Of a DNA stretch of 15,092 bases, positions 7,452 to 8,772 are shown piece by piece. The position numbers and the translations under genes are program-made. The notes beneath the pieces are model-generated. The model was not told the origin of the DNA. It searched no databases and worked only from the letters and a program-made list of their open reading frames with translations. The stretch is taken from the IMG/VR virus record IMGVR_UViG_2896595138_000009; one strand, given 5' to 3'. This DNA is from a virus. Lineage: Duplodnaviria > Heunggongvirae > Uroviricota > Caudoviricetes. Each line of letters begins with the position of its first letter. The stretch's first letter is position 1.

Positions 7452-7461
7452 CCTGTCCGGG
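7452..7461. repeat. Left copy of the direct repeat flanking the IS10-like element (CCTGTCCGGG)
   Basis: Identical 10-mer at 7452-7461 and 8763-8772 immediately outside the IS termini; IS10 makes 9-bp duplications, so the boundary is uncertain by 1 bp. Confidence 0.75.
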
Positions 7462-8762
7462 CTGAGGGATCCCCACAAAATTACTGCTAATAAACCAGCA
7501 CCATATTTCGGTAGGTTCTGGACAGATGGTTTAGAACTGTGCTCAGTACTGTTCGTCTTAAAATAAGTGGCGAGTGTCGAAGAACATTCTTCGCTAACGT
7601 CAGATATGAGATAACCCGCCGGGATTTAATGCTGTTAGCCTGATATTTCAGGTGTAACCCTTTATTTTCAGCGTGATAACCGAGTAACCACATTACGATA
7701 GTGCTCAACGTTGCCAGCAGACTCAGAACCAGAATTCTTCCTGTTGAACGACTTTTGCTGGCCCGAAGACCAAATCCGAAGCGCCCGTTCTTTTCATCAC
7801 GAAAGTTTTGCTCTATCTGCATTCGCCGACTGTATAACTTGATGATTTCTCGCGCTCTGAAGTCATTTGTACTGCTGAAGATCAACCAGGCTTCTTTTGC
7901 TGATTTGCTCTGTTCTTTGTCTGTTTTGTTTAAACCACTCTGACCTTTCGAACGTTTCTTTTTTCGCCCTTTTGCCGATTTCTTATAGGTGTAAAAATGC
8001 CCCCGGATGCTTTTTTTCCTTTCTTTAACCAGCCTTCCAGCCCCCATATATTCCGGTGTTTTACATTCAGGGCTATCCGACACTTTTAACCATCTTTCAG
8101 GCGCGTTATCGAGGCAATACTGAACGTTATTTCTGATCCGACCAATAAAATCCCAGCCCAGAGAAGTAATATGGTGAAACCATGCGCTCTGAAATCCAGC
8201 ATCCGTGACAATAATAACCCTGGCATCGGGGGGCAGGGATTGAGCAAGGGAATCAAGGAAATCATGTTGTATCAATGGATTATTTTGTTTTTCAGAAGGA
8301 ACAACCTTACTCAATAACGGAATGGAACGCCCGTCACACAGAAGGCTGGCACGAAGAACATGATGCTCCTGGGAGGGATAGCCACTCCAGTCTACGGCTA
8401 TTACACATAAAGATAACTGCCGTGTCAGCATTGAAGTGATATTCCTGAAAATCATTGGAATATCGCGATGGAGCGCCTCATTACCCATGAGGCGATCAAT
8501 ACGTTTGATCTTATTCTTAACTTGTGCATTACCCGGCAAAAAACGTCCGATACTGGTCAGCGTCAGAGATGCTCCGTTGATTAACGCCACTGTGGCATCC
8601 ATCAGGGCATTTTGTCGGTACTGATGAAATGGTGCTAAGGCATCCCGGAAGAAATTCTGACATACTTTATGAACAGGCATAGCAGTGATCTCATTGAATT
8701 GTTGGCACAAATCAGTAGATCACATAATGCTATGTCTGTCTCGTTTTCTGGGGATTCCTCAG
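7462..8762 (-). mobile_element. IS4-family insertion sequence, IS10-like but divergent, about 1.3 kb
   Basis: Termini CTGAGGGATCCCC (7462-7474) and its inverted counterpart GGGGATTCCTCAG (8750-8762) resemble the IS10 ends (CTGAGAGATCCCC). Flanked by a direct repeat, and contains one 407-aa transposase. Confidence 0.8.
7487..8710 (-). CDS. IS4-family (IS10-like) transposase, 407 aa, apparently intact
   Basis: Shares blocks with the IS10 transposase as recalled (IKRIDRL.GN..LH, VDWS, LRAS....GRS, DAGF, LGW, VQY, YS.RMQIE..FRD, QAN, LRHS), at roughly 40 percent identity by eye. Confidence 0.85.
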   Translation of the reverse strand: MCQQFNEITAMPVHKVCQNFFRDALAPFHQYRQNALMDATVALINGASLTLTSIGRFLPGNAQVKNKIKRIDRLMGNEALHRDIPMIFRNITSMLTRQLSLCVIAVDWSGYPSQEHHVLRASLLCDGRSIPLLSKVVPSEKQNNPLIQHDFLDSLAQSLPPDARVIIVTDAGFQSAWFHHITSLGWDFIGRIRNNVQYCLDNAPERWLKVSDSPECKTPEYMGAGRLVKERKKSIRGHFYTYKKSAKGRKKKRSKGQSGLNKTDKEQSKSAKEAWLIFSSTNDFRAREIIKLYSRRMQIEQNFRDEKNGRFGFGLRASKSRSTGRILVLSLLATLSTIVMWLLGYHAENKGLHLKYQANSIKSRRVISYLTLAKNVLRHSPLILRRTVLSTVLNHLSRTYRNMVLVY

Positions 8763-8772
8763 CCTGTCCGGG
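8763..8772. repeat. Right copy of the direct repeat flanking the IS10-like element (CCTGTCCGGG)
   Basis: See left copy. Confidence 0.75.

Follow-up and report, generated by a model that had tools for sequence, protein, structure and literature searches.

What is the mobile element at positions 7452–8772 of the viral record IMGVR_UViG_2896595138_000009 (Caudoviricetes; 15,092 nucleotides, the whole stretch being called the window here), how did it arrive, and can it still move? Very probably, 7462–8762 is an intact and probably transposition-competent copy of the insertion sequence ISSfl1, lying in a decayed prophage module of tail-fibre, DUF4376 and ipaH genes on a Shigella boydii-type chromosome. 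An earlier note on this DNA, made from the letters alone, had given the extent as 7452–8772, which is the element plus both copies of its flanking repeat, laid out as CCTGTCCGGG / CTGAGGGATCCCCACAAAA ... TTTTCTGGGGATTCCTCAG / CCTGTCCGGG. The parts are the following.

7462–8762, minus strand: ISSfl1, complete insertion sequence (IS4 family, IS10-like); 100% identity to the copy at puuE/puuB in FDAARGOS_943, 99.8% to those of pWR501 and pCP301.
7452–7461, no strand: left copy of the 10-bp target-site duplication CCTGTCCGGG; exact 10-mer, found elsewhere only at 8763–8772, single in the uninterrupted site of the related loci L005 and L006.
8763–8772, no strand: right copy of the 10-bp target-site duplication CCTGTCCGGG; exact match to 7452–7461.
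7462–7480, plus strand: terminal inverted repeat CTGAGGGATCCCCACAAAA, distal to the transposase start, 'inside-end'-like; GATC Dam site at 7468–7471.
8744–8762, minus strand: terminal inverted repeat CTGAGGAATCCCCAGAAAA, adjoining the transposase start, 'outside-end'-like; without GATC.
7487–8680, minus strand: intact transposase gene, 397 amino acids (aa); NCBIfam transpos_IS4_2, Pfam DDE_Tnp_1, catalytic residues D97, D160, E290 and Y283-R286-E290-K297.
8672–8740, minus strand: leader hairpin of 69 nt with the transposase AUG (8680–8678) in its 3' arm; from folding and conservation in relatives; GATC in the stem at 8687 and 8718.

Megablast against complete E. coli genomes returned a copy between puuE and puuB of E. 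coli FDAARGOS_943 with 100% identity over 1307 nt, which RefSeq annotates, for the identical protein, as 'IS4-like element ISSfl1 family transposase'. A plasmid search matched 107 records, 66 with a full copy and mostly Shigella virulence plasmids; 60+ Shigella plasmid copies, those of pWR501 (NC_002698) and pCP301 among them, show 99.8% identity, and the element differs from plasmid copies by 1–3 nt. The first description of ISSfl1 came from the virulence plasmid pWR100/pWR501 of Shigella flexneri. Under the ISfinder isoform rule (at least 95% nucleotide identity, 98% for amino acids), applied by proxies, the name follows from the 99.8% of the pWR501 and pCP301 copies and from the 100% of the RefSeq ISSfl1-family protein. 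Set against ISSfl1 of ISfinder (IS4 family), the window copy has the same ends, the same 397-aa transposase and 99.8–100% nucleotide identity over 1301 bp; there is no substantial difference, and the window copy sits in a chromosomal prophage remnant. The name is established in the literature, for example in the 'ISSfl1 locus' of the pEAF plasmid of enteropathogenic E. coli, with which truncated 97% copies matched on E2348/69 plasmids are consistent. The old pCP301 record labels its ISSfl1 copy 'ISSfl3 ORF', a naming inconsistency.

The insertion itself is on record as well. The sequence CP026845.1, probably the chromosome of S. boydii NCTC 9733 (the neighbouring accession, CP026844.1, is a plasmid of that strain), is 100% identical to window 4487–11680 (7194 nt), so that the window derives from this genome or from a nearly identical one and this exact insertion is already public in GenBank. 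At least eight copies, differing by 0–1 nt, lie in the S. boydii chromosome CP026875.1 (its plasmid CP026876.1 is labelled S. boydii), and a search with the exact protein placed the transposase in 73 blocks of the collection, spread over many sites on chromosomes. A full-length copy was present in 1 of 5426 complete E. coli genomes. The earlier note had described an unnamed, divergent and 'less common' element, to be named and counted by a database search. Unnamed it is not, being already catalogued and annotated; its rarity holds for complete E. coli genomes and fails for Shigella virulence plasmids, on which it is common; the search yields the name ISSfl1 and, for the chromosome CP026875.1, a count of at least eight.

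The element is 1301 bp long, with ends fixed by comparison of 14 copies with differing flanks: the bases just outside CTGAG/CTCAG vary among these copies, which sets the ends there. The two inverted ends, CTGAGGGATCCCCACAAAA and CTGAGGAATCCCCAGAAAA, are identical at 17 of 19 positions and both begin CTGAGGRATCCCC; the terminal repeat pattern has no further match in the window, with 0 expected by chance from shuffles. Likewise, the window has exactly two occurrences of the 10-mer CCTGTCCGGG, one against each terminus, where chance would give 0. Short inverted repeats that start with CTGA (CTGAGGRATCCCCASAAAA, 17/19), a length of about 1.3 kb (1301 bp) and a single open reading frame (ORF; 397 aa) together place it in the IS10-like group. 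An arrangement with longer inverted repeats (GGCTGAG...CTCAGCC) and a duplication of 6 or 8 bp was considered and rejected, the outside bases not being constant among the 14 copies.

One minus-strand ORF fills the element; it has 407 codons if begun at a TTG, 8710 (7487–8710), and gives 397 aa if begun at the ATG of 8680. The 397-aa version is that of the RefSeq annotation on identical copies. It scores 362.8 bits against NCBIfam NF033591 transpos_IS4_2 (cut-off 152; profile positions 1–339 of 340 covered) and 67.1 bits against Pfam PF01609 DDE_Tnp_1 (cut-off 23; E 2.4e-18). The IS4-family signature Y-(2)-R-(3)-E-(6)-K is present, with D97, D160, Y283, R286, E290 and K297 read from the translation, and the catalytic residues align in BLASTP with the IS10A blocks VDWS, VTDAGF and Y..RMQIE..FRD.K. 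Membership of the IS4 family is therefore given both by profile score and by catalytic signature.

IS10 / IS10A (IS1999), the module of Tn10 and Tn1999, is alike in its length of about 1.3 kb, its single transposase of about 400 aa and the aligned D, D, E and YREK residues, the two proteins being 35% identical over 368 aa (BLASTP, E 2e-72). The termini share the form CTGA.G.ATCCCC, with 12 of the first 13 nt identical at each end: the IS10A inside end CTGAAGGATCCCC matches CTGAGGGATCCCCACAAAA at 12/13 with GATC at the same place, the outside end CTGAAGAATCCCC matches CTGAGGAATCCCCAGAAAA at 12/13, and in both elements GATC is found only in the transposase-distal end. Past the 13-nt tips, nucleotide-level similarity ends; near-identity to IS10 or IS10A was not found, as the protein stands at 35% and no megablast-level DNA similarity to IS10A-bearing records was seen. 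Most of what had been read by eye is borne out by these comparisons, namely intact IS10-type ends, an identical flanking 10-mer, a full-length transposase, IS10-like membership of the IS4 family, and an identity to IS10 of about 40 percent, to which the BLASTP value comes close.

How the element arrived can be read from genomes without it. The empty site was rebuilt (left flank, one 10-mer, right flank) and searched against E. coli genomes; it is uninterrupted in 11 of them at 96.5–97.6% identity, including enteroinvasive E. coli CFSAN029787 and several human isolates. In L005 and L006 it reads ...CATATTGCGC CCTGTCCGGG GTGCCGGATGCACATG..., with one 10-mer and the neighbours found in the window; the bases next to the 10-mer are ...TTGCGC CCTGTCCGGG GTGCCGGAT.... 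Beyond the 10-mer, the flanks on the two sides of the insertion sequence are unrelated to each other. Because related genomes carry the uninterrupted site with a single 10-mer, the flanking repeat is a true target-site duplication made on insertion. The earlier note had proposed a look for the empty site in related strains, which is now found, and had held that a 10-mer lying within a longer duplicated host sequence would speak against a target duplication; the single 10-mer of L005 and L006 answers that concern.

The window copy was compared with other ISSfl1 copies (L001–L004 and L009–L017). Measured against the 9-bp duplication of the IS10-like group, the outcome is mixed: among the 14 independent copies, eight have perfect 9-bp duplications, four have 10-bp duplications (the window copy, L001, L010 and L011), one has an 8/9 match (L015) and one has none (L013), the last probably reflecting a rearrangement mediated by the insertion sequence. 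As the ends are fixed, the 10-bp duplications are not re-readable as 9 bp; a duplication of 9 bp plus one chance base was rejected for the window copy, whose left and right 9-mers differ at the fixed ends. Copies with 0 nt differences yield both 9- and 10-bp duplications, so that the variation lies in the reaction and not in the element. The target sites, rich in GC and more or less symmetric, follow the pattern CC(C)...GG(G); examples are CCCTGCGGG, CCCTTCAGG, CCTGTCCGGG and CCCGCGCGGG. IS10 makes strictly 9-bp duplications at a symmetric hot-spot consensus; ISSfl1 differs from it in its duplications of 9 or 10 bp and in its GC-rich CC(C)...GG(G) targets, and the geometry of target capture is thus not identical in the two, which limits how far the IS10 parallel can be carried.

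The established model for IS10 and IS50 is cut-and-paste excision followed by staggered insertion. By homology, we infer that the 397-aa DDE transposase would bind both CTGAGGRATCCCC termini and excise the element as a cut-and-paste transposon, whose 3' ends would then be joined to the GC-rich target at staggered points; once the stagger is repaired, the flanking duplication would result, 10 bp here and 9 or 10 bp at other sites. Expression is probably kept low as in IS10: in transcripts entering from outside, the leader hairpin would bury the transposase AUG, the other strand of the hairpin could be an antisense RNA like RNA-OUT, and the GATC sites in one terminus and in the leader, placed as in IS10, suggest control by Dam.

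On the transposase strand, positions 23–91 from the element's end (8740–8672) fold with a minimum free energy of -32.6 kcal/mol (z = -4.5); on the opposite strand the fold is better still (z = -6.0), with a U-rich tract, CUCGUUUUCU, after it. Across 11 relatives, comprising ISEc60, elements from Salmonella, E. fergusonii and Pantoea, and decayed remnants (loci L018–L027), 94% of cells are paired, against 26–44% in slid controls. Two pairs adjoining the AUG vary on both sides in a compensatory manner (GCA/UGC, GAG/CUC, GUG/CAC). ISEc60 and the unnamed elements of Salmonella pESI-type plasmids, E. fergusonii and Pantoea stewartii share the terminal CTGAGGAATCCCCAGAAAA and the leader hairpin with its compensatory changes; they are distinct elements, with 74–80% nucleotide identity in the leader and many truncated or frameshifted copies, and the Salmonella relative has about 72% protein identity to ISSfl1. 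The IS10A leader folds likewise around its AUG, with a hairpin of about 69 nt whose placement with respect to the start codon is nearly the same; the region there is RNA-OUT (RF00240, 85.9 bits, serving as positive control). The ISSfl1 leader is about 25 nt shorter, with its ATG at position 83 against 107. The hairpin at 8672–8740 is probably a fold-back or antisense control region. Many F-type plasmids, in both E. coli and Klebsiella, carry decayed remnants of about 100 nt from the transposase-proximal end of ISSfl1-like elements (H130–H148; L026, L027), with 827 plasmid records in the 80–90% identity band.

Several results tell against such a control region, or against its likeness to that of IS10. 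Covariation is seen in just 2 of 17 pairs, among relatives that stand close to one another. The Rfam model for RNA-OUT (RF00240, gathering score 41 bits) has no match in 7400–8850, even at E <= 10, which sets ISSfl1 apart from IS10. A sigma-70 consensus scan of both strands of the leader gave no promoter and fewer promoter-like sites than in shuffles, the only candidate being a weak outward extended -10, TGACATACT, at 8658–8666. Within the element, the Rfam scan gave just chance-level matches to mir-55 and snoRNA models, and a terminator consensus scan of the leader found none. A pIN-like promoter was also considered, TGATCTACT, which overlaps the GATC of 8718; its -10 hexamer is without A at position 2 and it failed the filter, so that no claim is made for it.

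With both sides in view, we hold with moderate confidence to an IS10-type control scheme in which read-through transcripts are inhibited by fold-back, with antisense RNA and coupling to Dam as possibilities. More tentatively, and with some doubt, the clade of ISSfl1 and ISEc60 might have its own control of the RNA-IN/RNA-OUT type, in a 69-nt hairpin invisible to the Rfam model, together with looser target capture at 9 or 10 bp in CC(C)...GG(G) sites. If true, this would be a second, independently diverged case of antisense-plus-Dam control in the IS4 family. The conserved hairpin may be of interest for work on antisense control of the IS10 type, as an extension of a known theme.

Is the copy still active? 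Copies that differ by 0–1 nt are spread over 12 or more loci, almost all with perfect 9- or 10-bp duplications, and the window copy has 0 differences from copies at other loci. To judge from the sequence, the insertion looks recent and potentially active, as the earlier note had it; 'active' is read here from intactness and copy identity. A copy that is intact in sequence yet dead or silenced, a frozen relic, is an unlikely alternative, to which the consensus scan without a promoter, the start codon buried in a strong hairpin and the many truncated or decayed relatives on F-type plasmids lend some colour. Low expression is the normal state of IS10-type elements, however, and the full ORF with all its catalytic residues, the perfect duplication and ends, the identity to copies at other loci and the at least eight copies with 0–1 nt differences in one chromosome, which implies recent spread, speak for a working element.

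What the insertion did to its target follows from the two genes that it parts.

7280–7461, plus strand: 3' remainder of a prophage tail-fibre gene, bounded by the cuts of IS600 (upstream) and ISSfl1 (downstream); 95% identity to L005 3980–4161, within the coding sequence (CDS; 2806–4218) of a 'prophage tail fiber N-terminal domain-containing protein'.
8786–9347, plus strand: 5' part of a DUF4376 gene (tail-fibre-assembly-like), interrupted at 9348 by ISSfl3; Pfam DUF4376, E 2.4e-14; 97.4% identical to L005 4152–4736, with homology resuming at 12093.

Where the site is empty, the two genes overlap, and their co-transcription is probable; ISSfl1 entered the 3' end of the tail-fibre CDS, with 19 codons left to its stop and 8 nt to the annotated start of DUF4376. 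The first annotated DUF4376 ATG is ATA in the window, so that the ORF starts at 8786, 23 nt past the end of the insertion sequence, in keeping with the position just upstream of the ATG given in the earlier note. ISSfl1 took away the final 19 codons of a tail-fibre gene that IS600 had already shortened to about 180 nt, and parted the DUF4376 gene from it. The insertion is functionally neutral, because the DUF4376 gene is itself split by ISSfl3. The separation of that gene from its promoter, also proposed earlier, is fair as to position and largely moot, as IS600 cut the tail-fibre gene, ISSfl3 split DUF4376 and no functional gene is left.

It is accordingly very unlikely that the insertion matters for DUF4376, whether through silencing by polarity or through drive from an outward promoter like pOUT of IS10. 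The end that faces the gene is the transposase-proximal one and leaves 23 nt before the ATG at 8786, the weak extended -10 candidate is directed outward, and an in-frame ATG at 8669 inside the insertion sequence extends the ORF. Against this, the split at 9348 by ISSfl3, with its 8-bp duplication AATGAAAG, makes a full-length protein impossible from this locus, the partner tail-fibre gene is down to about 180 nt through IS600, the first annotated ATG is mutated to ATA, the hairpin on the outward strand with its U-rich tract would tend to stop transcripts, and no consensus promoter was found in the leader. The ATG at 8669 opens a mechanical ORF of 235 aa (8669–9376) in frame with DUF4376 across the junction of element and target.

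That the 10-mer was a host repeat before the element came, and that the element arrived by recombination between its copies and not by fresh transposition, can be given almost no credence: the region is dense in insertion sequences, and L013 (without duplication) and L015 (8/9) indicate that rearrangement mediated by insertion sequences does occur in these genomes, but the uninterrupted homologous site has a single 10-mer with the same flanking bases, the 10-mer is nowhere else in the window, and the sequence past it differs on the two sides.

The reading of the element as a new, unnamed and divergent relative of IS10 is just as improbable, although the protein is only 35% identical to that of IS10A, full-length copies are confined to one of the 5426 complete E. 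coli genomes, a phage collection searched with the element gave no match, and an exact 26-nt end pattern had 0 matches among one genome per species (GTDB representatives; uninformative on wider spread, Shigella probably being collapsed into E. coli there, with a representative that lacks ISSfl1); the RefSeq name of the identical protein, the 66 plasmid records with near-identical full copies, the use of the name in papers and the same insertion in CP026845.1 (100% over 7194 nt) decide for ISSfl1.

As a finding, an ISSfl1 copy here is ordinary and already known, with little import beyond correct annotation; its small interest lies in the mix of 9- and 10-bp duplications and in the conserved leader hairpin. 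In practice the insertion, common to CP026845.1, may serve as a strain marker and as a data point on target choice and duplication length of ISSfl1. The locus is also a further example of the expansion of insertion sequences that erodes Shigella genomes, with three different ones within 6 kb of dead prophage beside an ipaH effector gene.

The other two elements can be described briefly. IS600 (IS3 family) lies at about 6019–7279 (orfA, 6083–6382; orfB, 6418–7236) and joins the early region of the prophage (DUF551, Bro-N, helicase, integrase; 470–5957) directly to the last approximately 180 nt of the tail-fibre gene, a junction that suggests a deletion or rearrangement mediated by the insertion sequence. 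A complete ISSfl3-like element of the IS66 family occupies 9348–12092 inside the DUF4376 gene, with TnpA at 9430–10104 and TnpB at 10101–10448; TnpC is split into overlapping ORFs, 10599–11159 and 11099–12061, so that this copy may be frameshifted. It is flanked by the 8-bp duplication AATGAAAG at 9340–9347 and 12093–12100, which is single in L006.

Past ISSfl3 come the end of the DUF4376 gene, a minus-strand ipaH gene and a DNA invertase gene. Compared with the intact ipaHb of E. coli FDAARGOS_943, to which it is 99.5% identical, this ipaH effector gene (LRR_TTSS domain; 12336–14161, minus strand) lacks 1 nt near 13236; it reads as two overlapping ORFs and is probably a frameshifted pseudogene. 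In the early region, between the Bro-N gene and the next prophage ORF, Rfam sRNA-Xcc1 (RF02221) matches 4552–4642 on the minus strand with 65.6 bits, against a gathering score of 53.
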